Below are positions 7,793 through 26,971 of a stretch of 45,655 nucleotides of DNA, piece by piece. Within the stretch, counting starts at the first letter, position 1; each line of letters opens with the position of its first letter. Source of the stretch: Candidatus Heimdallarchaeota archaeon. Lineage in GTDB: Archaea > Asgardarchaeota > Heimdallarchaeia > Heimdallarchaeales > Heimdallarchaeaceae. Position numbers and translations under genes: made by a program. The stretch spans positions 1 through 45,655 of the forward strand of contig JAHLWR010000028.1 of the NCBI GenBank assembly GCA_019057815.1, read 5' to 3'. Under the pieces are notes generated by a model. That model was not told the DNA's origin. It saw only the letters and a list, made by a program, of their open reading frames with translations, and ran no database searches.

Positions 7793-10700
7793 TTGTCTGA
7801 AATCGTTACCAAAAAAATGAGTGCTGCAGCATTCTTTAATGATAATAGAGCCATCGCAGGTTTTGGTAATTCTATGAGAGCTGTTTTCACAAGTATTAGA
7901 GAACTTGTTGAAAATGGGCTTGATGCTGCCGAAAGAAGAGGAATCAACCCTGTTATTGGTATAGATTTAAGAAGATTATCTCAAAAAGAAATTCAGGAAT
8001 TACTAGACGTAAAACAGTATAGATCACTGGAGAAGCATTTGGATTTTCTCCAATTAACATGTATAGATAATGGAATAGGTGTTCCTGGTCATTTAATAGC
8101 TGAATTATTTGGAAGAGTGCTCACAGGCACAAAATATGGTGTTATTCAGACACGTGGAAGATTTGGTTTAGGCGCTAAAATGTGCTTACTTTATTCAATG
8201 TCTTCTGTCGATTTACCTGCTAGAATACGTAGTAGACATTTTTTGGATAATATGACTCATGAACTTCATTTAATGATAAATTTAGAAAAAAATGAACCTA
8301 TTATAATGGAAGAACATGAATATCTTCCTGGGGACCCAAATTACCTTGAAGAACCAGGAACAGAAATATCTATCACCTTTACAGGAGCATGGAATCTCGC
8401 AAAGAATAGTGTGAAAGAATATTTCAAACAACTTGCAATAATAACTCCTTATGCAAGTTTTAATATTAATCTCCCAGGAGATAAAGATGGTGAAATTGAA
8501 TCTTTTGAATTAGCAAGTGTCGTAGACGATATGCCACCTCAACCTGAAATCGTGAAAATTCATCCATGGGGCTGTGATATAACTCAGTTCAAATCAGAGC
8601 TTTCTGTTACACAATCTAAAACCCTTAGAGAATTCCTTGCTAACCATTTCATGGGAGTCACAGAAGATATAAGTAAAGATTTCTTCCAATTATTAGGAAT
8701 AGATCCATCAAAAAAACCAAAAGAAATAACTTCAAGCGAAATAAGGAGAATTGTTCATGAGGGTTTTGTAAAAGCCTATCAAGAAGCAAAAGAAATCAAA
8801 CGTAAAAGAGATAGAAAATTTCAGTTTGAACCACCTAGAGGAAGTGCTCTTTCTCCTTTAGGTTCAGGTAGGCTCAGGAAGGGGCTTGAAAAAGAACTTC
8901 AGCCAAAATTCGTTGAAGCAATAACTAGACCACCTAAAGCTTATTCAGGTCATCCTTTCATAATAGAAGCAGCTATAGGTTATGGTGGGGGAGTGAAGGG
9001 ATTTACTCATTCAAGAGCTTCAAGTACAGATAATAAATTCATATATCGTTACGCAAATCGTATTCCTTTAATTTTTGGAGCGGGAAATGACGTTATTACT
9101 AAAGTTGTTTCTTCCATAAAATGGAGCGATTATGGGTTAACAAAACAATCAGATCCGCTTGCAATAGCTGTTTCACTTGTAAGTACAAAGATACCCTTTC
9201 CTGAAACAAGTAAAGAATATATTTCTAATGTTCCTGAGATAGAGGAAGATATCAGATTAGCTTTAATGCAACTTGGTAGAAGGTTGAAAACCTTTCTAAG
9301 TCGTGCTAAAAGAAGAAGAAGAGAACATGCTCGATTATCCCGTTTTGTTAAATCTGCACCTGTAGTAGTAGAAAACCTCACTCAGATTCTTCAAAGTAAA
9401 AAATCAATATTTGCCAATTTCCTACAAGGAAATGATAGAATTGCTTCAGCTCTAGCGCATGGTGCTCCTAAAAAAGCAAAATTATTCATGCCAATTGGTA
9501 AGAACCTTTTCAGTGTGAATGTTTGGTGTCCATCCTCAATTAGAAGAATACTAAATTCTAATAATGTTGTAACACTTGCTGATTTTTTCAATACACCAAC
9601 AGATCAATTAGCAACTATTTTAGAACTAACAGAAAATCAAGTTAATGAGATAAAGGAAAAGACAATTGATGAATTTGATAGAGAGAATATCAGTCCATTA
9701 TTAGACAATACACTTCTAATAAGCAGAAATGTAGAGAAAAGATTTTCAAAGAAGGCTGATAAGAGTTTTGTATCACTTAAAGATGCTCTTTACAGACGAT
9801 GGATACAGAATAGTTATCATTTTTTGGCCACAGAAATTGATAAACTCCGTTTTGTTTCTAATTTATTAGAGAAACTGTTCGAGTACAAAAAAGAACTTCT
9901 TATCACTCATTTTAAATCAAATAAAAGGAAACAAAGGGCAATTGGTACACCAACTCCAACAATAAAGGTAGAGTCTTTAACATCATATTCCAAATTAAAG
10001 GTTGAACATCTATTCCCTTCTTTTAAACAATTGAAAGCCATGTTAGGTGAGAGCTGTGATCCTGATCTGCTATATGAGGAATTTATTTTTCAAATAATCG
10101 AACCTACAGGAATAAATTACCAAGCTGCTATAACAAAAGTGTTAGTTGAAAATATGCAGCAGACGTTCAAGAAACTGATTGATAAATTCCCTAATTTTTC
10201 AAAGATTAAAATAACAAAAATGAAACCTGATTGGACAGATGGGTATACTAAAAATGCTTTTCACAGAAGAAAAATCTCTACTATAAGCGATTTTGTTAAA
10301 AAGGATTCTGAAGACCTAATTTTAATTAAAGAATTAGAAAGGGTCTTATTTTCGAGATTTTCGGATGTTCTCACCAAAAATACAGATTCAATAAAGCTTT
10401 CAAAGTTGCCAATTTCCGGTCTAAAAGAACTTCAAGGTGATGTTAAAGCAACCTTGAATGAACTTTCGAACAACAAGATTAATACCCTAGCAGAGTTAGT
10501 AAAACTTCAAAGTCATGAAATAGAAGAAGATAGTTATTACTTATTTGCTTCATTATTATTGAAAGAAGCAAAAACCATAATTCTAAACCATCTAAATGAA
10601 ACCCAGCAAAGTCACGATATATCTCACCTTAAGATTATTCCACACAGAATAGAGGTGGAGTTGAAGAAGAATCAGATTTTCTCTACATCTTCTTTCTTAG

Positions 10701-13700
10701 CTCACCCCTCTGTTAAATTGAAGAAAATGGGATTTAGGAAAAAGGATATTAATAATATTAAAAAGCGATTGGGCACTCAGATTCCTTCTTGGCTCAAAAA
10801 TAAGGATATTTTCAATAAACAAGGCATCACAACTTTAGAAGAATTGTTCTATAATACTGCTTCAGAGTTTGTTCTATCTAAAGATGAAAAGAAGCAATAT
10901 GAAGAATCTACAGTAATTCTTAGAAAACCTTTAATCTTTGGATTACCTGAACTTAGGAATTATTCTAATCTTCTTAACAAAATTGGTATTAATTGTGTTG
11001 GTAGATTCCTCTTATGGCCTGTATCGGAACTGATGGAGATCCTTAATCTGAATAAAGAAGAGATACAAGTATTAAAAGATAAGTTATCTCCTAAGACAAT
11101 TAAACAAAACGCTGATAAATATGGGAAAAGTTTGAGCTCTTTAGTAAGATTTTTCCCAAGACTTTTGAAATACTTTGAAACACACAATCTAACAATACAA
11201 GACTTGTTTTATATTTATATATCAGAAAAAGCAGTATCAAATTCTGGTTATTGGAAGAAAATTAATCAGTTAAATGAATTCTCTCAATCAGATATAACTG
11301 AACTAACAAACTTGATTGTATTAAAATCGAAGAAGAAGACAGATTTTCAAGAAGCACTACTCAAATTAAAAATTAGGAATATCAAGACTATAAAACAATT
11401 TCTTGATTCTCATTCTAATGTTATAGAAACAGAATTAACTGTTGCTTCTGAAAGAAAAATAGCTTTAGAAATTTTATATAAAATGCAAAAAGGTGAAATA
11501 GAAGGATCTAATGCTTTTCAAAAACAAATGATTCTAATATGTGAGTTTGATAATTTTCAACATTGTCTTAACTTACCAGTTTCTAGAATCTCTAATTTTA
11601 CACTTAACGATTATGAGATATTGAGAAACAATGGTATTATGGGCATTCATCAGTTGTTTGAATATACAGAGAAAGAATTATCAATAATATTAGGAAAATC
11701 AGCAAATCAAATGGAAGCACTTTTAGGAAGTTTTAGTTTCGAAAAAGAAAGACTTCCATTTTATGAAAAAGCTGAAAGCGGTCAATACAAATCCCTCATA
11801 TCCTTTGATTACGAGGATTCAGAAAGGTTTTCATCACAAGAGATTGATTCATTGATTCATTCAGGGTATGATTCTATTGATCAATTGTTCTATTTAACGC
11901 ATCACTCTACTTTTTCATCCCCTATTGTAAATTGGAAAGTAATGGATAGGTTCAAAAAATTATTACGGTCACCATTAACTTTAGTTAGTTGGGAGAAAAA
12001 AATTCAGAAAACAATTATTGACGAAGAGACGCAAGAGGAAAAGCAAATAATAGAAGTTCAGTACTCAAGTTTAACAACTCAACAGCTGAATACTCTCAGG
12101 AGTAATAATCTCACTCGAATTATAGATTTACTTCTCTGTAAAACAGAAAAACTACAAGAAATATTGAAGATTGAGGAAGAAGAAGCTAAAAAGCTTCAAA
12201 AGAATATTCGAATAATTGACAGTGGATTAGATCTTTCAGAACTAGGTATTTTCAAACCTCAAATAGAAAGAATGTTAGAAGAAAAAGACATTGTTACTAT
12301 AGAAGATCTTTATTTCTCAACCTCAAAAGCTAATTGGAATATTCCAAAGGTACCTTGGAATTTGATAGATTCAATAAAGAAAGTCCTGAATCTCCAATTA
12401 TCACATCTTTCTGATATGCTTGATTCTGAGTTAATTAAGCAATTGGGTGAAGCTAATGTCAAATCACTTCTTGGTTTTATGTTAAGTACTCCTGAAGAAA
12501 TCATGGAGAAAACTGGAATAGCTGATGAAAGATTTGAAAATATCAAAAGTGGGTTAGATCTAGGTTACATTATACAATATTTCTCACTTCCTGTTTACTT
12601 TGTTCCTAAATTGTCATTCTATCAAACAGAACTGCTTAGGCAAAACGATATCAAGACTGTCATAGATTTTGTGATTACTCGTCCAGGAAAAATAAGTAAA
12701 TTACTTAACATGACCGAGAAAAAGGTGAGAGTTTTAGCTTCTTCGCTTTCAGTTCAAATACTAGAAGAGGAATATGAAGAAAAAGGTGTTTTTGCATCTG
12801 AAACAAAATTATTTGATCGAAGTGAACAACGTCTGTTATCAAAAGATTCAATTCTTCAATTTGAAGGTTTACAGACAATTCAGGAGTTGTATTATTTAGT
12901 TTCAAGCGAATATTATCAGCTTAATCAAGAACTGTGGTCAAAAATATCAGCTCTGAAGAAAGTATTATCACTTCCATTGAGGATATTTACTGATATTTCA
13001 GACTATTCGCTATCACTATTAGAAAAAGTGAATATAAAAGATATTTTCCAAATCTTGTTTATTCCAGATTCTGACCTAGAAGATCCTGTGCTATACAGAA
13101 CAGTTTCAATATACTCATCATCGATTATAGATTTGAGAGCATTCCATTATTTCGCTATGTTGCCTGCTACAGTCTATAATTCGTCCTTTTTCAGTAAAAT
13201 AGTGAAAAACATCCAAGATATGACTCTTGTAGATATTATCACTAACGAAAAAGTTATCGAACACTTGGTTACAAAAAATAGACAATATATTAAAGAACAT
13301 TACAATATAACTTTCATAAGATCTCTTCTAGAACTGCCTCTTCGAATTAGTCCGCTGTACATTAAAATACCAGCTAATAGAAGAGAATATTACAAAGATA
13401 TGAAAGTAGGACAACTATTGGAACTTTCTTTAACAGAAAATCCTGCAATAGCTCCCGTTTTAACCTCCATCAAAGAAATAGATTCATTTAATGAAGTGAT
13501 ACAAAAACTCTCTTTACCTATAGCTACAATGGGATTACCAAGATCATTAGCTATCAAATTAAGCAAATCTTCTGTTTTTACACTTATTGATTTCTATTCT
13601 TCCCCAACAAAGCAGTTATCAGAGATGTCTGGTCACTCTCAAAAATTAATAAGAGAAATCAAAGAAAACTTAGCTTATTCTGATATTATTAAGTACCATT

Positions 13701-16700
13701 CTTCACACGCTCATCCTATAATCGCTTCTTCATTTATTTCAGAGGAGCAAATTGAAAAACTTAAGAAGCACGGAATTAGCGATTTAGAAACATTATATTA
13801 TTCAGCTGATGTGTTGGGGATTTCTAGCTTACTACCAGTAGAATATTATAGAAAATCTAAAGAGATATTATCTGGTTCAATAAGATTCTTAGGCTTTCTA
13901 GCTTTCGATGAAATTAAAAAGCTAGAATCCATGAATATTCATTCTATTATTGATTTAGCCCTTTTAAGTAAAAAAGAATTAAAAGAAATAACAGGAAATG
14001 AGATATACACTGAATTCCATATATTAGATCTAATAGCGTTTGATGAAATAGCTGAAAAGCGATTACAAACCGCTATTCCATTAATAAGTTGTTCTTCAAT
14101 AAAAGAAGATTATCTTGATAAACTAAATGAGATTGGAATACATTCCGTACAAGATTTTATATCTAGAATAGCTGAAATAATAGAAAGTCATCCATATCTT
14201 GTAGTTTCAGATGTTTTTAGAGAAATACAACTATATTTATCATCTGTCTCTTTTGTTGGATTACCAATTGAACAAACTAATATGTTGATTTATTTAGGCA
14301 TTGAAGATATTCTAACATATATCACAGAAGACCCATCAACAATTGCAATAATTCTGCATACTAATACGAGCAAAATAATTTCTTCTATTAAAAAGCTATC
14401 TCCACAGAAAATTGCCTCAAAAGTTAAACTAAATGGGGTTAAATTAATTGACTTCTTACCTTTGTCTAAAGGAAGGGTTGCAAATCTAGTAAAATCAGGG
14501 AAAGAACTAGTTCAAGATCTTTACAGCTTGTATTATCAAACATCTTCTATTCCTTCAGTTTCAGAAGGAAATATAGAGCATTTTATAGAACTCTGCAATG
14601 CTTCTGTATACAGAATTAAAGATTTGTCTTTAAATGAAAAAATAGAACTGAGAAAACATAGAATATATCGTGTAATTGACTTATTAAGCAGCCATGGTAA
14701 TGTTTTGAGAAAAATATTTGGGAAGATTCCAGAGTCAATTAAGAAGATTAAAACAGGGGAGTTTTCCTTATCAAACGGAATACCCCTCAACTTGAATGAA
14801 CCTATGTTAGAAATCTTAGCTGAAGTAGGTTTTGATTCTCCTAAAAAGACTGTAGAAGACTTATTCAGTTATGTGCCAGAATTACTCTATCAATACTCTG
14901 ATGCTGAACGAATCGAGAAAACTAAGAATGTTTCATTTCTAGAGCAGTTAGTTAGCTTCCTATGCCTGAATGTATTAACTATTCCTAATTTCGATCCGGA
15001 AGCAAAAATGGCTTTATGGCGCAATGGAATTAGACACATAATTGATGTGTTAGTAGTGAATGTAAACTCACTTACAAATATGCCAAAAAATATACAACAA
15101 CAGATTCGTCTTTATCAACGAGAATTCGATTTAAGTAGAAATATGTCAGCAACATTTTCTCCATTTATCAACCAAACAATTAATCTTCCAGATAATGTAA
15201 AAGAGAAATTCGTAGGCTATGGGATTAACAATATTCTCTTTCTAATGGATTTCATACCTCATCCAGTATTTAATTTCTCAAATGAAGAATTAGCTATACT
15301 CAGTAAAGTATCAGAGAACATTGTAAAACCGATTACATGGTTGTATGGGCAATTAAAGCTTAATATTAATAGTTTAATGGCATTCCTTTCACAGAAAGGA
15401 ACAGATATTCTTTCAGCTTTTCTCCTTCTATCACAACAAGATATACAAACAATTGATAATGCTTTTTCAGAGGATCTTCAAAATAAGCTCTATCATGCCA
15501 TCAATAAAGAAATATTAGATCTTAAGGTTCCAAATTGGGTAATAAGAATAGATCAAACTAATTTGTTTGCAAAACCCGAAATGGTAAAGAAACTTAAGAA
15601 AAAAGGTATAGAATTTCTGGATGAATTTCTTGCACTTGATAGCATTGCAGAAACTAGTAAAACTATAGATTTAGACAATATAAATTTGTTGAATTTATTA
15701 CATCAGATCCCAATATCTGTAATTAAGGAAATATCAACAGAGAATGTTGCAGTATTAACTAGTACGGGTATAGATACAACATATGATTTCCTTTATGTTC
15801 CTACACCTATTTTGTCAAAATTACTTAAAAAGAGTATTGAAAAAATTAATGAAATAAAATCCTCGTTCAAGCCTTCAGCTCTTATAAATAAAATGAAATT
15901 ACTTGGTCTAGATATAAATACGATACATACACTCCAAGAATCCACAAAGAAAATATTAGTTAACTATGGCTTTGCAACAATACTCCAGCTCAAAAATATA
16001 CAATTAGATAAGCTAAAAATTCCAAAAGAAGAAGTGAGGCAATTAACAGGTGCAATAACAGAATTGTATACTCCAATTACACTTCTTGGAAAGGTATTGA
16101 ATATTGAAAAAGAAATTATTACCAATCTTGTTTCTAGAGCAGTTTGTACATATGATGATTTGACTAAACTACCACTGCATAAATGGCCGAAAGAGTTTAA
16201 AGTGATACATACTAAACAGAAAGCTGATAGTTCCTATCTAAACAAACTACTGAAATCATCAAAGAAGAAAGGTATGTTAATCTCAGAATTGAATCTATCA
16301 AAACGACTATCTTTAGCGTTGAATGAAATTGGTATAATCACAATAGATCAATTATTGTTTGTTCCTAGCAAATGTATCGTTTCCAATACAAAAATTAACA
16401 AAGAAGAAATAGAGACTATAAGAGAAAAACTGGATTGCTACCTTAGTTATATACCAAATATATCGAGAGAAACAATTGAATTCTGTTTTCAAAAGGGGTA
16501 TACAAAGGTATCAGATGTTTTAATTTACTTTGATAAACTACCTAAAGATGTCAAAGAAGATATTCTAAAATCTGTATCACATATCAAAAACATTGAAGAA
16601 TTACAATTTATGGAACCATTATCTCCCACAGAACTCTACTTACAGAGGAAAGGTTTCAAATCATATAAATCGGTACTTTCTTCCCTTGAATTGAAGAAAA

Positions 16701-19700
16701 ACTATGAATTATCAAAGAGAATTGTTCCTATATTAACGGCGAATATAAGATTCCTGAATATCGATAAAAGTATCGAAGATAAAATAAAAAGAGCTCGAAT
16801 AACAACAATCTCGGATCTATTGATTCTCTCTCCAAAAACACTTTCTTCTAGAAGCAAAATTAAACAAGCTTTATTGAATAATATTATAGAATCCATAAAT
16901 ATAGACAAGGTGGAGTCTGAAATTGCTCATCAGAGTGGAAGGCATCTTGTAAAAGCTTTTTCCTTAACAAATAAAGATAAGAATACTTTAAAATCCTATG
17001 GAATTTATAATTTGTCAGATTTTAAAAATAATACTTCGTTCTCTTGGTTAATCCCAGAAAAACAAATTAAAGCAATAAGAGTAACAATTGCATCAAGTTT
17101 AGATACTCTATTACTGTTTTATACGAATATTGCAAAAATGTCACTTCTAGATATTGAAGATACATACTTTTCAAAAGGAATTTTCAACATTCAGGATTTA
17201 CTATCAATTAGTCAAGATAAAGAAGTTAAAGAAATTGAATCTTTCCTTACTAAGTTTGCAACAAACAGGAAGCAATTGATACAACAGTATTTGCCTGTTA
17301 ATGAGTTCCTTGCACCCCTTTCTATAAGAAACCTTTTCACTAAAGATACTCAAAAAATGAATATTAAAAACATCATAGACCTTAGTACATTCCTTTACTA
17401 TAATAAAGAACAATTAACTGATGAAGGAAAAGAAATTATAGCTGTTTTAAAATGCCCTATTTCGATTTTTGATGTTTTTAGCACTTCTGATATAGAAAAA
17501 TTAGCTGAAAAAGGCGTGAAAACTCTAGCTGATTTTCTACTGAAACCAAAGAATCTATTGATGACAATCATTCCACAAAAACTTGCTAAGCATGTTAGTA
17601 AGATTACAGAAATGATGAATTATGAAAATCTAAAGAAACAAAGAGATAAAGCTACACAAATTGCATCAATGAAACTTTTCGATCCTGAGATTAAGAAAAC
17701 TATTACCCAATTCTATACAACAATCAATGAGCTGGTATTTGCTGTTAAGAACAAAGTTTCTTTTGCTCCAAGACCAGTTGTAAGGAAAATAGAAAATTTG
17801 CTCAATACACCTATTCAGCAAGTTAAAATTCCTGGAATATCATTAAATTCCTGGTTAAAACTTATTGGAACCATAGATAACCTGGCTGAACTTTATGTCT
17901 TGTCAAATAAAGAACTTACGTCCTTACTTTCCATAACAAAGACCAAAGCAGCGAAAATTATAGTTGATATTGATGTAAATAGTATTGTCAAAGTGCCAAT
18001 AATACGTGAAAATCTCCTATTCGGTGCTTCTGATATTGCTATTTTAAAAGAAAAGCAAGTAACCAACTATTCACATCTTTACAAAAAAGACTTTTCAAAC
18101 TTTGCAATTTCCAGTATGCTACAAAGTAAAATTGAGATATTATTGAATTTAAAATTATCTGCAATTAATTCAAATATTAAGGAATCCTTTACACTTATTA
18201 CTCTTAATTTCCTTGGGCCTATAGTAGATACTTTAGATATTGAGAAAGAAAAGCAAACAACTTTTTCATCATACCATAAAATGCTTTTCAGTAAGGGTCA
18301 TTATTTGATCAACCTTATTCAAACCAAAATAAGCGAAGATGAAGAACTATTATCCAATTTTACGCTTGAATTTTTACTTCTAGCAGGAATCTACAAAAAG
18401 AAGATTTTCAATGATGCTCTTAATTCTCTTCAACCGCCTTCCAAGAGTAACTTGAATCGTTTCCTAAAATTGATTGAAAGATCTCCTATAATGCTTATCG
18501 GTGCAGGTTTAGATGCAATAGGAGCTGTTGCTGATATTCCCGTAACAACAATTAACGAACTATTATTAATGTCAGAAGTAGAGCTTAAGGCACTACCAAA
18601 TTATCGACTCTTCAATCAAAACTTGAAAAACTTGTCGTTATCCTTGCTGGAAGAGCAAAATAAGAGATTGATTAAGTTTCCAAAAGGAGTTTTACAGAAA
18701 GATGATAAAGCTGTTTTGGACAAAAACTTCATTTTCACAGTGGAAGATTCTTTGGTTTACAACAAGAAGTTTAAATCTAAGAAAACAGATTTGTGGAACA
18801 TTACAGAACGAATCAAAAACATAATGATGGTAAGCTTATATTCGTTAACGCCTATTGTTCAATCCAGAAATCTTCTTGATTTATTAACTTCTTATAAGAT
18901 TGATTCTCTTTACGAATCACTTGTTGCGAGTCAACAAGAGCCTCTTGACGAAAAACAAGGTATCATTGAAATGCTTAATCAATTAGAATTCAGCAAAATT
19001 ACCAAATATATGAAAGAAGAAAAACAAAGATTTAGTAATTTCATTGCTGATGATGAGCTAATGAACGCTTTATTAGAACAAGGAATTTCCTCTCTTGGTT
19101 CATTAATATCTATGACACAGTGTGTTTTAACTGATGAACACCCATTAGAATTAGAGCATGTTCTCCCGGCTTTACGAGCTCCTTTGTCATTAATTGTTGG
19201 AAATAAAATTATTTTAAATAAATTGCAAAAAATAGGTTTGGTGCAAGTTGCTGATTTAGTATTACCTCCAAATATTAAGCTGAATCTTGAAGGAACACTG
19301 AGTGAAAAAGAGATTGATATAATTCAAGAAATACGTAATAAAATGAATTTGCAGACTATTAACAGCTGTCTCAAAACTATCTATCCTTTATTAAATACAA
19401 ATTTCATTGATAGTGATATAAAGCACGCATTAATGAAAGCAGGATACAGTTCTATCAAACACCTTGAAGTTTCTGAAATTACTATCATCAACCAAACAAA
19501 ATTAAGAGAAAGTCATATCATCAAAATTAAGAAATTACTAAACACACCTATATATATTCTGTCAGAGTTATTGAGAGAAGATGTTCAGAGCGTTCGTAAA
19601 TTGCATAAGAAGGATAAATTCAACCTGTTTCAAGTGATGGAAACCGACATTAAAGAGCTTTCTACTCTGACCAAACTTCCTTCCAGACAGATAAAGGTGT

Positions 19701-20356
19701 ATCTTTCTTCGCTTTCAGCTGAATCAATACGACAGTCTCAAAAGGATCAAGTTTCTGTTAGTTCTATTAATCCACATTTAACTAAAGAAGATGTTAAAAC
19801 GCTAATAAAAGCAAATATTACCTCTTTACAACAATTGATTTTGCCTACAGCGTCAATTAAGAGGAAATCTGCTTTTAAACGACAGAATGTCGAAAAATTG
19901 AGACACCATCTAGAAAAACCAATTGAAGAAATTGAGTTACATAGTGATGATGTTAGTCAATTAAAACAACTCGGTGTGTTATCATTTGGTGATTTTGTTC
20001 TTTATCCTACTTCACTTCTCGAAGGAAAAATAAATCAGAACTATTTAGCAATAAAGCGACTTAAAGCAAGAATGCCACTAAAAGGAAAAAAACCTACACC
20101 TAAGAAGAAGACTACACCTAAGAAGAAGACTACACCCAAGAAGAAGACTACACCCAAGAAGACCACATCTACTACTAAAAAAGTGTTAAAACCTCAAAAA
20201 AGTTCTCTGAGTAAATCAATAAAACCTAAGAGAACCCGTCAAGTAACATTACTCGAAATGGAACCTGTCATTAAAAGTGGAACACAAAAAAATCAATCAA
20301 TAACGAGTTCACCGAAAACTAAAACTTCATCATCAAAGAAAGGAGGATCACAATAA
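7793..20356 (+). CDS. top6B: DNA topoisomerase VI subunit B with giant C-terminal HhH-like repeat array (4187 aa)
   Basis: GHKL motifs ELVENGLDA, DNGIG and TRGRFGLG; transducer motifs YANRIPL and STKIPFPETSKE in the first ~530 aa. The frame continues open for ~3,650 aa of repeats. TTG start. Confidence 0.93.
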   Translation: MSEIVTKKMSAAAFFNDNRAIAGFGNSMRAVFTSIRELVENGLDAAERRGINPVIGIDLRRLSQKEIQELLDVKQYRSLEKHLDFLQLTCIDNGIGVPGHLIAELFGRVLTGTKYGVIQTRGRFGLGAKMCLLYSMSSVDLPARIRSRHFLDNMTHELHLMINLEKNEPIIMEEHEYLPGDPNYLEEPGTEISITFTGAWNLAKNSVKEYFKQLAIITPYASFNINLPGDKDGEIESFELASVVDDMPPQPEIVKIHPWGCDITQFKSELSVTQSKTLREFLANHFMGVTEDISKDFFQLLGIDPSKKPKEITSSEIRRIVHEGFVKAYQEAKEIKRKRDRKFQFEPPRGSALSPLGSGRLRKGLEKELQPKFVEAITRPPKAYSGHPFIIEAAIGYGGGVKGFTHSRASSTDNKFIYRYANRIPLIFGAGNDVITKVVSSIKWSDYGLTKQSDPLAIAVSLVSTKIPFPETSKEYISNVPEIEEDIRLALMQLGRRLKTFLSRAKRRRREHARLSRFVKSAPVVVENLTQILQSKKSIFANFLQGNDRIASALAHGAPKKAKLFMPIGKNLFSVNVWCPSSIRRILNSNNVVTLADFFNTPTDQLATILELTENQVNEIKEKTIDEFDRENISPLLDNTLLISRNVEKRFSKKADKSFVSLKDALYRRWIQNSYHFLATEIDKLRFVSNLLEKLFEYKKELLITHFKSNKRKQRAIGTPTPTIKVESLTSYSKLKVEHLFPSFKQLKAMLGESCDPDLLYEEFIFQIIEPTGINYQAAITKVLVENMQQTFKKLIDKFPNFSKIKITKMKPDWTDGYTKNAFHRRKISTISDFVKKDSEDLILIKELERVLFSRFSDVLTKNTDSIKLSKLPISGLKELQGDVKATLNELSNNKINTLAELVKLQSHEIEEDSYYLFASLLLKEAKTIILNHLNETQQSHDISHLKIIPHRIEVELKKNQIFSTSSFLAHPSVKLKKMGFRKKDINNIKKRLGTQIPSWLKNKDIFNKQGITTLEELFYNTASEFVLSKDEKKQYEESTVILRKPLIFGLPELRNYSNLLNKIGINCVGRFLLWPVSELMEILNLNKEEIQVLKDKLSPKTIKQNADKYGKSLSSLVRFFPRLLKYFETHNLTIQDLFYIYISEKAVSNSGYWKKINQLNEFSQSDITELTNLIVLKSKKKTDFQEALLKLKIRNIKTIKQFLDSHSNVIETELTVASERKIALEILYKMQKGEIEGSNAFQKQMILICEFDNFQHCLNLPVSRISNFTLNDYEILRNNGIMGIHQLFEYTEKELSIILGKSANQMEALLGSFSFEKERLPFYEKAESGQYKSLISFDYEDSERFSSQEIDSLIHSGYDSIDQLFYLTHHSTFSSPIVNWKVMDRFKKLLRSPLTLVSWEKKIQKTIIDEETQEEKQIIEVQYSSLTTQQLNTLRSNNLTRIIDLLLCKTEKLQEILKIEEEEAKKLQKNIRIIDSGLDLSELGIFKPQIERMLEEKDIVTIEDLYFSTSKANWNIPKVPWNLIDSIKKVLNLQLSHLSDMLDSELIKQLGEANVKSLLGFMLSTPEEIMEKTGIADERFENIKSGLDLGYIIQYFSLPVYFVPKLSFYQTELLRQNDIKTVIDFVITRPGKISKLLNMTEKKVRVLASSLSVQILEEEYEEKGVFASETKLFDRSEQRLLSKDSILQFEGLQTIQELYYLVSSEYYQLNQELWSKISALKKVLSLPLRIFTDISDYSLSLLEKVNIKDIFQILFIPDSDLEDPVLYRTVSIYSSSIIDLRAFHYFAMLPATVYNSSFFSKIVKNIQDMTLVDIITNEKVIEHLVTKNRQYIKEHYNITFIRSLLELPLRISPLYIKIPANRREYYKDMKVGQLLELSLTENPAIAPVLTSIKEIDSFNEVIQKLSLPIATMGLPRSLAIKLSKSSVFTLIDFYSSPTKQLSEMSGHSQKLIREIKENLAYSDIIKYHSSHAHPIIASSFISEEQIEKLKKHGISDLETLYYSADVLGISSLLPVEYYRKSKEILSGSIRFLGFLAFDEIKKLESMNIHSIIDLALLSKKELKEITGNEIYTEFHILDLIAFDEIAEKRLQTAIPLISCSSIKEDYLDKLNEIGIHSVQDFISRIAEIIESHPYLVVSDVFREIQLYLSSVSFVGLPIEQTNMLIYLGIEDILTYITEDPSTIAIILHTNTSKIISSIKKLSPQKIASKVKLNGVKLIDFLPLSKGRVANLVKSGKELVQDLYSLYYQTSSIPSVSEGNIEHFIELCNASVYRIKDLSLNEKIELRKHRIYRVIDLLSSHGNVLRKIFGKIPESIKKIKTGEFSLSNGIPLNLNEPMLEILAEVGFDSPKKTVEDLFSYVPELLYQYSDAERIEKTKNVSFLEQLVSFLCLNVLTIPNFDPEAKMALWRNGIRHIIDVLVVNVNSLTNMPKNIQQQIRLYQREFDLSRNMSATFSPFINQTINLPDNVKEKFVGYGINNILFLMDFIPHPVFNFSNEELAILSKVSENIVKPITWLYGQLKLNINSLMAFLSQKGTDILSAFLLLSQQDIQTIDNAFSEDLQNKLYHAINKEILDLKVPNWVIRIDQTNLFAKPEMVKKLKKKGIEFLDEFLALDSIAETSKTIDLDNINLLNLLHQIPISVIKEISTENVAVLTSTGIDTTYDFLYVPTPILSKLLKKSIEKINEIKSSFKPSALINKMKLLGLDINTIHTLQESTKKILVNYGFATILQLKNIQLDKLKIPKEEVRQLTGAITELYTPITLLGKVLNIEKEIITNLVSRAVCTYDDLTKLPLHKWPKEFKVIHTKQKADSSYLNKLLKSSKKKGMLISELNLSKRLSLALNEIGIITIDQLLFVPSKCIVSNTKINKEEIETIREKLDCYLSYIPNISRETIEFCFQKGYTKVSDVLIYFDKLPKDVKEDILKSVSHIKNIEELQFMEPLSPTELYLQRKGFKSYKSVLSSLELKKNYELSKRIVPILTANIRFLNIDKSIEDKIKRARITTISDLLILSPKTLSSRSKIKQALLNNIIESINIDKVESEIAHQSGRHLVKAFSLTNKDKNTLKSYGIYNLSDFKNNTSFSWLIPEKQIKAIRVTIASSLDTLLLFYTNIAKMSLLDIEDTYFSKGIFNIQDLLSISQDKEVKEIESFLTKFATNRKQLIQQYLPVNEFLAPLSIRNLFTKDTQKMNIKNIIDLSTFLYYNKEQLTDEGKEIIAVLKCPISIFDVFSTSDIEKLAEKGVKTLADFLLKPKNLLMTIIPQKLAKHVSKITEMMNYENLKKQRDKATQIASMKLFDPEIKKTITQFYTTINELVFAVKNKVSFAPRPVVRKIENLLNTPIQQVKIPGISLNSWLKLIGTIDNLAELYVLSNKELTSLLSITKTKAAKIIVDIDVNSIVKVPIIRENLLFGASDIAILKEKQVTNYSHLYKKDFSNFAISSMLQSKIEILLNLKLSAINSNIKESFTLITLNFLGPIVDTLDIEKEKQTTFSSYHKMLFSKGHYLINLIQTKISEDEELLSNFTLEFLLLAGIYKKKIFNDALNSLQPPSKSNLNRFLKLIERSPIMLIGAGLDAIGAVADIPVTTINELLLMSEVELKALPNYRLFNQNLKNLSLSLLEEQNKRLIKFPKGVLQKDDKAVLDKNFIFTVEDSLVYNKKFKSKKTDLWNITERIKNIMMVSLYSLTPIVQSRNLLDLLTSYKIDSLYESLVASQQEPLDEKQGIIEMLNQLEFSKITKYMKEEKQRFSNFIADDELMNALLEQGISSLGSLISMTQCVLTDEHPLELEHVLPALRAPLSLIVGNKIILNKLQKIGLVQVADLVLPPNIKLNLEGTLSEKEIDIIQEIRNKMNLQTINSCLKTIYPLLNTNFIDSDIKHALMKAGYSSIKHLEVSEITIINQTKLRESHIIKIKKLLNTPIYILSELLREDVQSVRKLHKKDKFNLFQVMETDIKELSTLTKLPSRQIKVYLSSLSAESIRQSQKDQVSVSSINPHLTKEDVKTLIKANITSLQQLILPTASIKRKSAFKRQNVEKLRHHLEKPIEEIELHSDDVSQLKQLGVLSFGDFVLYPTSLLEGKINQNYLAIKRLKARMPLKGKKPTPKKKTTPKKKTTPKKKTTPKKTTSTTKKVLKPQKSSLSKSIKPKRTRQVTLLEMEPVIKSGTQKNQSITSSPKTKTSSSKKGGSQ
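20094..20163 (+). repeat. 18-bp coding tandem repeat (~4 copies) encoding TPKKKT
   Basis: Unit CTACACC(T/C)AAGAAGAAGA repeated in tandem. Confidence 0.9.
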
Positions 20357-21762
20357 TGGTAAACTATAAGTTTCAGATTAGAAATTCAACAATATTACCA
20401 GCAACAGAAAAGTTTGTAGCCTTTGAGAAAGAAACACCAATAAAGGAGATTCAGAGTTGGGTCAGTGATACATTTGATATGTCTAAAGCTTCTTTTCTTT
20501 TATTTTTAAGAAGTGGTAAAAAATGGTATAAACTAGAAGTACCAAAACTTCTGTCTGACTACAGTCTTCAAAAAGAAGGTATGAGAATTGATGTAAGAAA
20601 GACTGTAAATTTAAGTCAAGTAAAAGCGCTAAAAAAAGAACTTGAGATACTTAGCGAATATTCTATGCCTTTTGGAGTAATAAACGTTGAAACAACTTCT
20701 TCTGAAGAAACTAGCAACCGTTTGGTAGAAAGTGCCTTAGACTTTCTTAATCAAGCAATGTATAACCCTCTAGAAGCATCCTTCTATATACCCTCTCGAG
20801 GGGGTTCCAACATTGGTTTTGATGAGGAGCAAGAATTAATTTTAATAGGAAAGCAAATGATTGAAAGGCAATTTAGAAATCTTGCTTCCGTTAGTTCTGT
20901 AGAGCAACTATCTATTTTGATGCGATTGATATATGATATTTTAGCCAGAGACATCCATAGTACTAAACGTGATATATTCTATATGAATGTGAATGCATTC
21001 GAAAAACAATCTATTTCTGACACATTAATTGAAGATTTAGGAGCAATGTTACAAGTTACTCGATCTTCTTTAAATGTTAGTGCCTCTTCAAAAGGAATAG
21101 TAATTGGAAGGTTGAGTTTTAAAGAAAAGGGAGATTTTATTGATTGTAAAGCGATTGGTTCTGGAAAATCTATTTCTCCAAATATTGATGACATTGAAAA
21201 TATGGAAAGTGATGCTGAATTTTGTATAGTTGTCGAAAAAGACGCTATTTTCAACCGCCTTGCAGAAGATCACTTTTATGATTATGTTCCAAGTATTTTA
21301 GTGACTGCAAAAGGACAACCTGATATGGCGACAAGACAGTTTTTAAAGAAGATTAATGATGAATTGAAACTTCCTATTATAGCCATAATGGACGCAGATC
21401 CTTATGGTTTCGAAATTATGAGAGTTTACTCTGTAGGAAGTAAAGCTTTGAGTTTTGAATCCTCTCATCTAGCTGTACCCAATATTAAATGGCTTGGTCT
21501 TCTACCTACTGATTTGGAACTTGATAGTGGTTTTGATATTCCCAGACATGCTTTAATCCGAATGACTTCAAAGGATATTCATAGGTCAAAACTAATGTTA
21601 GAAGAAGAATTCGTTAAACGAAAACCAAAATGGAGAAACCAATTGCAAACCTTACTTAATGGTGGATATAAGGCAGAAATTCAAGCACTTAATGCTAGAG
21701 ATCCCCAATTTATCACTACCCACTATTTACCATCGAAACTTGAATCTGGGGACCTTATATAA
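20356..21762 (+). CDS. top6A: DNA topoisomerase VI subunit A (Spo11 family) with N-terminal ubiquitin-like extension
   Basis: Catalytic TKRDIFY, Toprim VVEKDA and DADPYG, C-terminal KAEIQAL. TAATG stop/start overlap with top6B. Confidence 0.95.
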   Translation: MVNYKFQIRNSTILPATEKFVAFEKETPIKEIQSWVSDTFDMSKASFLLFLRSGKKWYKLEVPKLLSDYSLQKEGMRIDVRKTVNLSQVKALKKELEILSEYSMPFGVINVETTSSEETSNRLVESALDFLNQAMYNPLEASFYIPSRGGSNIGFDEEQELILIGKQMIERQFRNLASVSSVEQLSILMRLIYDILARDIHSTKRDIFYMNVNAFEKQSISDTLIEDLGAMLQVTRSSLNVSASSKGIVIGRLSFKEKGDFIDCKAIGSGKSISPNIDDIENMESDAEFCIVVEKDAIFNRLAEDHFYDYVPSILVTAKGQPDMATRQFLKKINDELKLPIIAIMDADPYGFEIMRVYSVGSKALSFESSHLAVPNIKWLGLLPTDLELDSGFDIPRHALIRMTSKDIHRSKLMLEEEFVKRKPKWRNQLQTLLNGGYKAEIQALNARDPQFITTHYLPSKLESGDLI

Positions 21763-21830: not shown

Positions 21831-22127
21831 TTATTCTTTCTTTGTTAGAACTATTTCAACAGTAGATACAGTTTTAGTGATAGGATTTTCTTCTGTTCCT
21901 TGTAATTCTTCAGATCCAATTTCTACTTTTGAAACTTCTACCTTGTCTGCCAAGAATTTTCTTCTAGTTATTTCAGCTACATCTACTGCTTTAGAAATCT
22001 GTCGACCTCTTGCTTGAATACTGCATTCATCACTTTTATTTAGTATAGTAACAGCAACTAGAACGTATGAAATTGTGTTCTTCTTTCCTATATAGATTAC
22101 TTGCGAATGTTCTTTCTCTTCACTCAT
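21831..22127 (-). CDS. albA: Chromatin protein Alba
   Basis: IYIGKK..SYVLA, ARGRQISKAVDVAEI, VSTVEIVL. ATG at 22127. Confidence 0.95.
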   Translation of the reverse strand: MSEEKEHSQVIYIGKKNTISYVLVAVTILNKSDECSIQARGRQISKAVDVAEITRRKFLADKVEVSKVEIGSEELQGTEENPITKTVSTVEIVLTKKE

Positions 22128-22296
22128 GTTTTTCACCGGTATTTCGATATCTTGTGTTAAATAAGTTAGCGTTTTAGAAACCTTTGAGATTCTTTAAAAG
22201 CTTTTCCTTATGAAATTGAGCTTTCTGGTTACAAAATAATCTAAAACCAGAATATCCAAATGTTGAAATACAGTTCTCTATTTCAATAGGATATAT

Positions 22297-24043: not shown

Positions 24044-24628
24044 ATGAGTTATATTAACACCTTGTTCTTGAAAATCATTTTAATTGGTGAAACTGGTGTT
24101 GGGAAAACAAGTTTAAGACGATCGTATTTAGGCGTCGGTTTTGAATCTGAACATCTTACAACAATTGGTGCAGATTTTGCATCGTTAGTTAAAAAAGTGA
24201 AAGATATTAAAATTACTTTCCAAATTTGGGATTTAGCTGGTCAAGACTTCTTTCAAGCTGTTAGAAAAGTCTATTATAAGGGGTCTTTAGGTGCTTTGCT
24301 GATTTTTGATGTTACTGACTTAACTACTTTAAAAGCGCTGGACAGTTGGGTAGATGAATTGGAGGAAAGTTCTGGTCGTGGAATAATTCCATTTTTTATT
24401 CTAGGGAACAAAGTAGATCTAATAAGTGAAAAAAAACTTGCTACAATTAAAATAAAAGCTCAAAAACATGTTGATAAATGGAAAAAAAAATACAAGAGTA
24501 GTGGGTTTGAAATCAAACTTTTTTTCACATCAGCTAAACTGGGAGAGAATGTTCAAGAAGGATTTGAAAGTTTAGGAGAAGAGATAATAGATTTTCTAGC
24601 TTTCAGGAAGAAACAGAGGGAAAATTAA
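24044..24628 (+). CDS. Rab-like small GTPase
   Basis: G1 GETGVGKTS, G2 TTIG, G3 WDLAGQ, G4 NKVD, G5 SAK. Confidence 0.93.
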   Translation: MSYINTLFLKIILIGETGVGKTSLRRSYLGVGFESEHLTTIGADFASLVKKVKDIKITFQIWDLAGQDFFQAVRKVYYKGSLGALLIFDVTDLTTLKALDSWVDELEESSGRGIIPFFILGNKVDLISEKKLATIKIKAQKHVDKWKKKYKSSGFEIKLFFTSAKLGENVQEGFESLGEEIIDFLAFRKKQREN

Positions 24629-26971
24629 ATGGACATTGAAGAAATCATTATATTGCTGGAACAGGATGATACTAGTAAAATTGATTTGAATGAAATAAAG
24701 GTTCTTCATAGATTAATTAAATTGATACCCCATAAAAACAAAATAGTAAGAAATAATGCTAAGCGTCTTCTTTTTAAAGGAAGTCTTGTTCCAACAGAAA
24801 AGATCATAGAGGAATATGTTAGTGATTCCAATTCTTTCTTAGAGGAATTGATAATAAGCAAATTATGTTTCTTCATTCCTATATTAACAGATTTTCTGAT
24901 AAAGAAAGATAGCTTCAAACAACTACATGTCTTATTATCAAAGCAAAGTGTTCAGACTATACAGAAAGCGGTTGATAAAGCTTCAATAACAGCTCCTATA
25001 CTCTCTGCTATCGCTGAGATAGCGATTAGAACATGTCACGTATCCTACTGTAGTAATACTGATTCTCTATTGACCTATCAAATTATTATTGAAAATACTA
25101 AGAAACTTAGAAAAACACTTTTATTCAGATTAAACCAAGAAGACCCTATTTTCACAGAACTAGTTTTACGAACCGTTTATCAGTTTCAAGATCTAACCAA
25201 ATTAATTGTTAACCAAATAAGAAATATCATAACTAACTCTTCAGTAGATGAGCATTTACGTTATGCTGCAATTGCTCTAATGAATCTACAAGACCCCAAA
25301 AACTCTGACATTTTAATAAAACGACTAAAAACAAAAGAAGATTCAGAGGAAGTACAACTAGCAATAATCGAAGCTTTAGGTAATCTAGGTAATCTTTCTT
25401 CAACTGAAATTTTGCTAGAACAATTCAATAAAAGTGAAAGAATCGCATACTATGCTTCTCATTCATTAGCTCTCCTTGGTGATGGTGTTTATCCAGCGCT
25501 TATCAAAGCTCTAAATGACGATAAATTCGTTATCTATGTAACAGAGACTATGAAAAGACTAGGTGAAAAAAGTTATGATTGGCTAATAGACGCTTTAGCA
25601 AAAGGAAAAAAGAATGTAAAAAGAAATGCTGCGCAATGTTTAACCCTTGTCATAAGTCAGGAACATGGTTATGAGGGTGGAATCAGGATTCTCACAAATC
25701 AGCTTGCTGGAAAAAATAGAGAAGTCATTCAATCTGTAGCTCAATCCTTAGTAAATCTTGGAACACCTTCAATCCGAGTTCTGATTGAAGAATTATCTGA
25801 AAATGATATGCGTTTAAGGAAGAATGCTATAGAAATCTTGCAGAACTTTGGGTTTCAAAATATTGAACTTGCGTTAGATGGGATTTTAGAGGTAGATTCT
25901 TACAAAGCAGTAGAGTTAGGAGTAATACTTTATATCTATTATCCTAGTGAGGATGTTAGAAACTTGGGATTATCTTTTGCAATCTCGAAAAATAAATTAA
26001 GGAAAAAGAATGATGATCTTTTAAATATCATTTTCAAGGCAACAGCAGAGATAGAGCCTGAAATAAGAGAAAGGGCCTGTTTAATGCTATCTTATTGTGG
26101 ATCAAATTCTATAAAATTTCTGTCTCATCTCTTATTGGATATTAATTTGCAAGTGAGGAGAAAAGCCGTCGAATCTCTTAGAAAGGTTAAAAGTAAGAAA
26201 GCCTTGATAGTTTTAATAAAAGCTGCAAAAGAATCTGATGCTCTTATATCAGAAACAGCAACTAGAGCACTAGGAGAGTTACAGGATCCTGGGGTTATTG
26301 ATGTAATTCTCAATAACATGAAACGTTCTAATATCGTTGTTAGGGATGCTGCTTCCTATGCTGCAGCAAAAATAGGTATGACTGTTGTTCCAAAGCTATC
26401 TCAACAGCTATCGTCAGCAAATCGTGATCTTGTAGAAGGATCCGTTAGTGCTTTAAGTCGAATTGGAGTAAATGCTATTAAGCCTTTAACTAAAACGCTA
26501 GAACAAAAAAGTGAAAAATGGTTTAAGAATTTTCAAAAAGTAATTACTGCGATGGGTCAAAGTTCAGTGATTGTTCTTCATGAAATATATAAAAAAGCAA
26601 GAAAAAAAATAGCTATGACGAGAATCTTACTTCTCTTATCACTATTGGATGACACAAAACACATGAAAAACTACATTGATATTGTCTTAGACGAAGATGC
26701 GAAAATTGGAATTAGAATGATAAATAATGTTGGATCAAATGGTGTAATCTCCTTGATTAACAATCTAGAACAATACTCAAAATCTGATATAAACCTCTTT
26801 ATAGAAAAAAGTAGAGGGATGAGTCGAGAACTTGTTCGAGAAATAATGGTGGAAATATCAAAAAATCCAAAATTAAAAAGTTTTAATAAAAAAATAGACA
26901 AAATCCATGGAAAAAGAGTTAAAAAGCTATTCTCAAACGTTAAAGACTATAACAAATTATTAGATTCTTAA
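24629..26971 (+). CDS. HEAT-repeat (PBS-lyase-type) alpha-solenoid protein
   Basis: Repeats such as VQLAIIEALGNLG, VRRKAVESLRKV, SETATRALGELQD and VRDAASYAAAKIG. Confidence 0.85.
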   Translation: MDIEEIIILLEQDDTSKIDLNEIKVLHRLIKLIPHKNKIVRNNAKRLLFKGSLVPTEKIIEEYVSDSNSFLEELIISKLCFFIPILTDFLIKKDSFKQLHVLLSKQSVQTIQKAVDKASITAPILSAIAEIAIRTCHVSYCSNTDSLLTYQIIIENTKKLRKTLLFRLNQEDPIFTELVLRTVYQFQDLTKLIVNQIRNIITNSSVDEHLRYAAIALMNLQDPKNSDILIKRLKTKEDSEEVQLAIIEALGNLGNLSSTEILLEQFNKSERIAYYASHSLALLGDGVYPALIKALNDDKFVIYVTETMKRLGEKSYDWLIDALAKGKKNVKRNAAQCLTLVISQEHGYEGGIRILTNQLAGKNREVIQSVAQSLVNLGTPSIRVLIEELSENDMRLRKNAIEILQNFGFQNIELALDGILEVDSYKAVELGVILYIYYPSEDVRNLGLSFAISKNKLRKKNDDLLNIIFKATAEIEPEIRERACLMLSYCGSNSIKFLSHLLLDINLQVRRKAVESLRKVKSKKALIVLIKAAKESDALISETATRALGELQDPGVIDVILNNMKRSNIVVRDAASYAAAKIGMTVVPKLSQQLSSANRDLVEGSVSALSRIGVNAIKPLTKTLEQKSEKWFKNFQKVITAMGQSSVIVLHEIYKKARKKIAMTRILLLLSLLDDTKHMKNYIDIVLDEDAKIGIRMINNVGSNGVISLINNLEQYSKSDINLFIEKSRGMSRELVREIMVEISKNPKLKSFNKKIDKIHGKRVKKLFSNVKDYNKLLDS

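Follow-up and report, generated by a model that had tools for sequence, protein, structure and literature searches.

A ubiquitin-like domain at the N-terminus of Top6A in a Heimdallarchaeota topoisomerase VI with a giant Top6B

Top6A, the DNA-cleaving subunit of topoisomerase VI (Topo VI), is the archaeal counterpart of Spo11, the protein that starts meiotic recombination, and in published trees the Top6A of the Heimdall group are the ones nearest to the eukaryotic proteins. In the solved Topo VI structures (2zbk, 2q2e) the N-terminus of Top6A contacts the C-terminal end of the transducer of the partner subunit, Top6B. Brinkmeier et al. 2022 (PMC9665070) described an extra N-terminal helix, alpha1, which Asgard and eukaryal Top6A have in common and which is missing from the characterised archaeal Top6A, and the Asgard Top6A has been treated as a eukaryotic signature protein (PMC12680538). 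Here we describe the Top6A gene of a Candidatus Heimdallarchaeota archaeon (assembly GCA_019057815.1), located in a stretch of 45,655 nucleotides, positions 1 to 45,655 of contig JAHLWR010000028.1, which was analysed as a whole and is called the window (G+C about 32%). The protein starts with a ubiquitin-like domain (UBL) and its gene follows that of a Top6B of unusual size. This UBL-bearing Top6A (UBL-Top6A) is a novel variant on the known Topo VI enzymes and on the known integral UBLs, and the assignment of its fold is secure.

The Top6A gene and its N-terminal domain

The Top6A open reading frame (ORF) occupies positions 20356..21762 of the forward strand and encodes 468 amino acids beginning with MVNYKFQIRN. 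It is the single Top6A encoded by the genome (3.7 Mb, 95% complete), and its closest protein relatives all come from Heimdallarchaeia metagenome-assembled genomes. The features of the gene and of its start are the following:

20342-20347, + strand: GGAGGA box, ribosome-binding-site-like, 8 nt ahead of the Top6A ATG (read from the sequence)
20354-20358, + strand: TAATG overlap, formed by the Top6B stop TAA (20354-20356) and the Top6A ATG (20356-20358) (read from the sequence)
20356..20601, + strand: UBL with a beta-grasp fold, Top6A residues 1-82 (AlphaFold2 (AF2), Foldseek, VIA-align, family profile)
20614..20658, + strand: helix, Top6A residues 87-101 (AF2 helix 87-99/101)
20659..20703, + strand: low-confidence tether (residues 102-106), then the strand motif [FLM]-P-[YFV]-G-V-x-x-V (AF2 pLDDT, alignment)
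20704..21762, + strand: canonical Top6A/Spo11 core, residues 117-468, then the stop codon (Pfam, alignment with 2zbk_A, E 7e-56 over 117-467)

Residues 1-82 almost certainly constitute a genuine ubiquitin-family beta-grasp domain, produced in one polypeptide with the enzyme and, having no Gly-Gly end, non-conjugatable. The AF2 model of the domain, built on an alignment of 25 diverse orthologues to which the counts given below refer, reached a pLDDT of 89.7 and contains strands at residues 3-10 and 17-24, a helix at 29-40 and strands at 47-53, 56-60 and 76-82. When this model was used in Foldseek the top matches were exclusively ubiquitin or UBL domains (ubiquitin, ISG15, SUMO and the UBL of TBCE) with a probability of 1.0, and the 50 rows listed by VIA-align (Z 12.5-9.9) were ubiquitin-like domains or chains bearing one, one row being unclear. 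The beta-grasp fold that a preliminary description of this DNA had suggested, together with the check by AlphaFold and Foldseek, was in this way borne out.

Searches at the level of the family led to the same place. A profile of the 25 N-termini matched mono-ubiquitin chains in the PDB (E 9e-7 to 7e-5), with profile positions 13-78 aligned with ubiquitin 7-69, and in a library of 1.8 billion proteins it ranked polyubiquitins first; these dominated the library-wide search to the point that nothing was learned from it on domain architectures. LEVPKLLSDYSLQKE matches a segment of the C-terminal half of ubiquitin at 9 of 15 positions, a likeness that had already been pointed out and that the profile alignment supports. 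A Pfam scan of the query N-terminus alone returned no ubiquitin family and just a chance-level match to LZ3wCH, for which reason family-level searches were needed. The same kind of search on the 25 orthologues (E up to 1) found PF00240 in 10 of them (best 1.7e-7), the NPL4 UBL family, weakly, in seven and Rad60-SLD in four, and PF00789 was not among the families listed for them. One orthologue (L011) exceeds the curated Pfam cut-offs both for PF00240 (27.4 vs 25.4 bits) and for PF11976 (29.7 vs 23.8 bits).

F50, the equivalent of ubiquitin F45, is invariant, and the equivalents of ubiquitin I44 and V70 keep their hydrophobicity (L49 in 24/25 and V80 in 25/25). Relative to ubiquitin there is a five-residue insertion, KKWYK, between strands 3 and 4. 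No orthologue (0/25) has a Gly-Gly in the 27 columns that follow the last strand; the sequence there is V-[KR]-[KR]-x-V-x-L and runs directly on into Top6A. The UBL is therefore integral to Top6A and is no conjugatable modifier, as had been anticipated in the preliminary description.

The start codon is sound because of the GGAGGA box, the TAATG overlap and the orthologues of similar length, more than 100 in number (461-496 aa, mostly 463-471 aa), with an N-terminal region that is common to the 25 aligned ones. Since residue 15 of the S. shibatae Top6A (2zbk_A) pairs with residue 117 of the query (E 7e-56), about 116 residues stand ahead of the canonical N-terminus; by this alignment the protein has about 100 extra residues, and the 85-100 first estimated from the MVNYKFQIRN start were close to it. 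The explanation that there is no real domain, either because the true start lies downstream and the codons before it are untranslated or because the likeness to ubiquitin is due to chance, draws on the blank Pfam scan of the query alone, and it is close to refuted by the same start signals and orthologue lengths, by the preserved hydrophobic pattern of the beta-grasp with its invariant F50, and by the profile, the fold prediction and the two structure aligners, all of which lead to ubiquitin. A downstream start had been judged unlikely from the outset.

The helix at residues 87-101 we infer to be the alpha1 helix common to Asgard and eukaryal Top6A; Asgard Top6A without the UBL still align across this region and the next strand. 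In the strand motif P105 and V111 are invariant. The full-length AF2 monomer model gave a pLDDT below 50 for residues 102-106 and of 84-91 for the UBL, the former therefore indicating a flexible tether. The remainder of the protein is a normal Top6A, with the B-binding helix at residues 116-136, the 5Y-CAP winged helix at 183-241 (PF04406, E 2.1e-19) and the Toprim domain at 289-462 (PF21180, E 3e-58) with DADPYG at 346-351. The catalytic Tyr209 is found in TKRDIFY, which is aligned with TIRDLYY of 2zbk_A and in which F208 and Y209 are invariant, as are the metal-binding acids E294, D346 and D348 of the Toprim domain.

The giant Top6B partner and the distribution of the domain

The cognate Top6B of the window Top6A is the adjoining upstream ORF, the two genes being joined by the stop/start overlap:

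7793..20356, + strand: giant Top6B, 4187 aa, operon partner of UBL-Top6A (Pfam, match to 2zbk_B)

Residues 8-538 of this protein form a normal core (GHKL-transducer) that matches 2zbk_B at E 7e-86, with Topo-VIb_trans at 348-512. Beyond the core there are about 3650 amino acids of repeats of the helix-hairpin-helix (HhH) type, which gave matches to RAD51D_N and HHH_5, and then a basic tail rich in K, T and P. That both subunits of this Topo VI are remodelled, as previously proposed, is thus upheld.

We scanned 151 Asgard genomes with a full-length Top6A profile. In 28 genomes the match began at profile positions 1-9 and the open frame had about 462-483 aa; they belong to families f1-f5 of the window's class, with three of the five genomes of a further family, f19. 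In the remaining Asgard it begins further in, at 19-108 and mostly at 55-108, and the frames have about 390-450 aa (494-954 aa in family f10). A maximum-likelihood tree of 41 Top6A, calculated from the core columns alone, has a branch with 100/100 support that separates the UBL bearers from all the others, which is consistent with a single gain of the domain or with a single loss, depending on the root. The UBL probably arose once in the Heimdall-group lineage and has been inherited from then on along with the giant HhH-armed Top6B.

The ORF that ends just before UBL-Top6A has 2286-4305 aa in 24 loci, the window included, and is cut by the contig end in one more. These Top6B have 4156-4305 aa in f1, 3473 aa in f2, 2312-2342 aa in f5 and 2286-2515 aa in f19 and other contigs. 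Top6A without the UBL pair with Top6B frames of 543-1178 aa (13 loci). One genome (G041) carries both kinds of pair some 10 kb apart, a UBL-Top6A with a Top6B of at least 2293 aa and a 389-aa Top6A with a 564-aa Top6B; another (G058) apparently has both as well, the canonical pair being cut there by the contig end. The co-occurrence of UBL-Top6A with a long Top6B, one of the checks proposed at the start, was therefore found in every sampled genome except one in which the gene is split.

Family f10 presents a different arrangement, in which the HhH array is placed on the N-terminus of a Top6A without UBL and Top6B has 647-671 aa. These Top6A, of 749-951 aa, are:

L008:7351-9597 (G075), + strand: HhH-Top6A
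L009:259-3111 (G037), - strand: HhH-Top6A

Their order is a basic tail rich in K, T and S, 2 to at least 7 HHH_5 units, a basic linker and a normal Top6A core. UBL remnants were sought between the array and the core, and a basic low-complexity linker was all that was found there.

A motif Q-x-T-L-[LE]-E, embedded in basic low-complexity sequence, is present in the C-terminal tail of the giant Top6B (window 20230-20260, RQVTLLEMEP) and near the N-terminus of the f10 HhH-Top6A (P0123 residues 17-29, P0122 residues 11-18). RQVTLLEMEP was considered as a ligand of the UBL resembling a SUMO-interacting motif, which is unlikely as the f10 Top6A, without UBL, start with the same motif (QATLEELVEP, RQSTLLEH). 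Judged by its sequence, the motif looks more like a degenerate archaeal PCNA-binding box unconnected to the UBL. Another candidate, a Loki-type Top6B (G104) that seemed to end in half a UBL, with a profile match running through the stop codon, was also rejected; its C-terminus is winged-helix-like (LKELERKGTIIVEIRKGKKHWKL) and the similarity is short and due to chance.

Top6B of about 1100 aa with large insertions before the transducer were observed in f13 (L010:1345-4602, - strand; L016:6342-9719, + strand) and in f26 (L045:9233-12766, + strand), and their C-terminal segment is winged-helix-like (LKELERKG..V....G...WKL). In L010 Top6B and Top6A share one frame with a single TAG between them.

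In several loci (L024-L027, L036 and L037 of f5, L004 and L005) there is a cluster gyrB-gyrA-top6B-top6A, in which the gyrase genes directly precede that of the giant Top6B. Archaea that encode gyrase, Asgard included, have been reported to carry lineage-specific C-terminal extensions on Top6B (PMC9348778), and the presence of gyrB/gyrA next to several UBL-Top6A operons fits the proposal made there that the extensions accompany gyrase. Genes for HEAT-repeat proteins (780-972 aa) occur near the giant Topo VI operon in three lineages (window 24629-26971, + strand; L003:1-2205; L011:9333-12248), the one in L011 being placed between two Topo VI gene pairs, and genes for Ras/Arf-family GTPases are found near it in the window (24044-24628), L002 and L005. 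Both kinds of neighbour may be coincidental. In the window the Top6A gene is faced at its 3' end, across 69 bp, by a convergent gene for an Alba-family chromatin protein (21831-22136, - strand; PF01918, E 6e-18).

Possible roles of the domain

We tentatively favour a role for the UBL as a protein-docking module of the remodelled Topo VI holoenzyme, which may bind the HhH arm of Top6B or factors bound to that arm. Given where the Top6A N-terminus lies in the solved structures, the UBL would hang at the junction of the A and B subunits, at the same corner from which the arm would emerge; helix 87-101 and the short flexible tether would connect it to the catalytic core, and it might there hold or organise part of the arm or an arm-associated factor. 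Docking within the holoenzyme is favoured because of the co-inheritance of the UBL with the giant Top6B, the f10 arrangement and a split gene in one genome, G151 (CP070760). The loci of this split Top6B are:

L002:7171-9984, + strand, and L047 (CP070760, around 2.04 Mb): split Top6B of G151

The first approximately 1360 residues of the giant Top6B are encoded 1.7 Mb away from the rest, and the distal arm piece, of about 900 aa, has its own gene directly upstream of UBL-Top6A; it shares 56% identity with residues 1414-2314 of an intact relative.

Several observations weigh against this docking role. The three arguments just given are phylogenetically non-independent, and the co-occurrence goes back to one ancestral event, for which reason it does not count as separate evidence for contact or as proof of functional coupling. 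Masked bases (N runs) are present at both G151 junctions, so that an assembly artefact or a rearrangement is possible. In G119, a genome of the window's class, a Top6B of 1123 aa (L042, G119:C67, 1577-4945, - strand) has a clear HhH array (HHH_5, E 1e-29) and its Top6A (299-1507, - strand, 403 aa) has no UBL and forms a long branch that is not part of the UBL clade; an HhH tail can therefore exist without a UBL and the coupling is not obligatory. As for the domain itself, the loop equivalent to ubiquitin L8 is poorly kept (hydrophobic in 16/25) and the UBL is less conserved than the Top6A core, with 46-51% vs 73-74% identity to the nearest relatives. A complex prediction of UBL residues 1-85 against Top6A 86-468 and Top6B 430-960 scored 0.42 and a control in which Top6B was replaced scored 0.45; the score therefore stems from the Top6A chain kept in both, most simply from the covalently adjacent helix 87-101, and it speaks neither for nor against a contact with Top6B.

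Among the other explanations, the UBL could be a handle for machinery of the ubiquitin-receptor type, such as a Cdc48-type unfoldase, the proteasome or another ubiquitin-binding factor, which would extract DNA-trapped Top6A or control its turnover. Eukaryotic parallels are provided by the proteasome-shuttle UBLs of the Rad23/Dsk2 type and by the p97-dependent removal of topoisomerase adducts. In profile searches the domain is nearest to ubiquitin proper and not to ThiS or MoaD, the weak matches of seven of the 25 orthologues are to the NPL4 UBL family, which binds Cdc48, and VIA-align places among its structural neighbours a UBX domain and the UBLs by which NUB1, Dsk2 and Ddi2 bind the proteasome. 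The genome moreover has two Cdc48-type ATPases and a eukaryote-like ubiquitin system:

L019 = G000:C38:217242-220439: ubiquitin cluster with a 78-aa ubiquitin-like gene, an E1-like gene (ThiF/UBA-type) and an E2-like gene with an HPN motif

The 78-aa ubiquitin-like protein ends in TKGGY and would require C-terminal processing. Against such a handle, Cdc48 is present in archaea generally, including four of the control genomes, and its presence therefore says nothing specific. UBA and UBX domains were not found in this 95% complete genome, although the UBX search also matched none of the control genomes and is therefore uninformative. In the loop that joins strands 3 and 4, where UBX domains carry the FPR signature (R...FPR), the query has RSGKKWY and its close relatives have [KR]x[KNG]KKW[YF], which is still compatible with Cdc48 binding in some other mode, and the restriction of the UBL to lineages with a giant Top6B is left unexplained. 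Altogether we regard a handle of this type as possible but rather unlikely, and its more specific form, in which the built-in UBL allows an Asgard Cdc48/ubiquitin-type system to recognise and extract Top6A covalently trapped on DNA, as improbable. If the latter were true, the repair of topoisomerase and Spo11 DNA-protein crosslinks that depends on ubiquitin/SUMO and p97 would have had a precursor older than eukaryotes, situated in the archaeal lineage closest to them.

Two further explanations require no such machinery. A basic module that contacts nucleic acid, holding DNA near the cleavage subunit by electrostatics and with no specific protein partner, is suggested by the charge of the UBL, which is basic in most orthologues (median net charge +4, pI 9.4; +3 or higher in 18/25) and differs from that of the acidic Top6A core (median -9, pI 5.2). 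After the last strand there is a conserved basic pair or triplet, with K or R at position 81 in all 25 sequences and a basic residue at position 82 in 18. An RNA-binding UBL (8id2) is among the structural neighbours, and the UBL of SF3A1 is known to bind RNA. This explanation is nevertheless unlikely: the net charge is +1 or lower, down to -5, in seven orthologues, no DNA-binding motif was identified, and the giant HhH arm and its basic tail are predicted to supply ample DNA-binding capacity already. A regulation of the enzyme in cis, in which the UBL would tune cleavage or gate opening by packing against the Top6A core or the dimer partner, has precedents in the UBLs within USP deubiquitinases and parkin, which regulate their own enzyme. 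A further precedent lies in a GHKL-family machine, SMCHD1, in which the UBL stabilises the GHKL ATPase dimer (PMC6620310). The tether of roughly 15-35 residues is short enough for the UBL to reach the core. It is low-confidence in the full-length monomer model, however, which gives no sign of a stable packing of the UBL on the core, and regulation in cis does not account for the link with the giant Top6B, so we find it quite unlikely.

Comparison with known systems

We know of no such UBL in eukaryal Top6A or Spo11, either from the literature or from the solved Spo11 structures. A ubiquitin-like domain on Top6A was likewise not found in the literature searched (term 'ubiquitin'), which included PMC12680538, PMC9665070, PMC12395588 and a 2026 preprint; the domain is visible in the precomputed domain matches of a few orthologues, yet it is not described there. 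The interest of UBL-Top6A is tied to its position beside the eukaryotic Spo11/Top6A lineage, as it suggests that type IIB topoisomerases were elaborated with eukaryote-style interaction modules prior to eukaryotes. The UBL also offers a concrete and testable entry to the assembly, targeting or clearance of so large a Topo VI.

Compared with the canonical archaeal Top6A (2zbk_A, 389 aa; M. mazei 2q2e_A, 369 aa; M. jannaschii 1d3y_A), the window protein has the same 5Y-CAP domain with its catalytic Tyr, the same Toprim DxD motif and a Top6B gene directly upstream, and its residues 117-468 align end to end with 2zbk_A. It differs from them in its approximately 116 additional N-terminal residues (UBL 1-82, helix 87-101 and tether) and in a Top6B that is about 8x the normal size. 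With respect to the Asgard/eukaryal-type Top6A with helix alpha1 (PMC9665070), the difference is that in the window a UBL precedes helix 87-101.

As a domain, the UBL resembles the integral type-2 UBLs of TBCE/TBCB, Rad23/Dsk2/Ddi, the USP enzymes and parkin, and the SUMO-like ones of Rad60/Esc2, in being a fixed part of its protein with no conjugation motif, and they share its fold (Z 10-12.5, rmsd about 2 A over 73-89 residues). Unlike those known examples, its host is the catalytic subunit of a type IIB topoisomerase of an archaeon and, relative to ubiquitin, it carries the KKWYK insertion. The N-terminal UBL of SMCHD1, which stabilises the assembly and does not signal degradation (PMC6620310), is also a fixed UBL on a machine related to GHKL/Topo VI-B, although the likeness is an analogy only; in SMCHD1 the UBL belongs to the ATPase chain, whereas in the window it belongs to the DNA-cleaving partner subunit.

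The f10 Top6A (L008, L009) share with UBL-Top6A the presence of an accessory module at the Top6A N-terminus, where in the genome the B core and the A core meet, and their HhH units and basic K/T-rich tail are of the same kind as those of the giant Top6B. In f10, however, the module is the HhH array itself next to a Top6B of just 647-671 aa, while in the window the array extends Top6B and the junction is occupied by the UBL.

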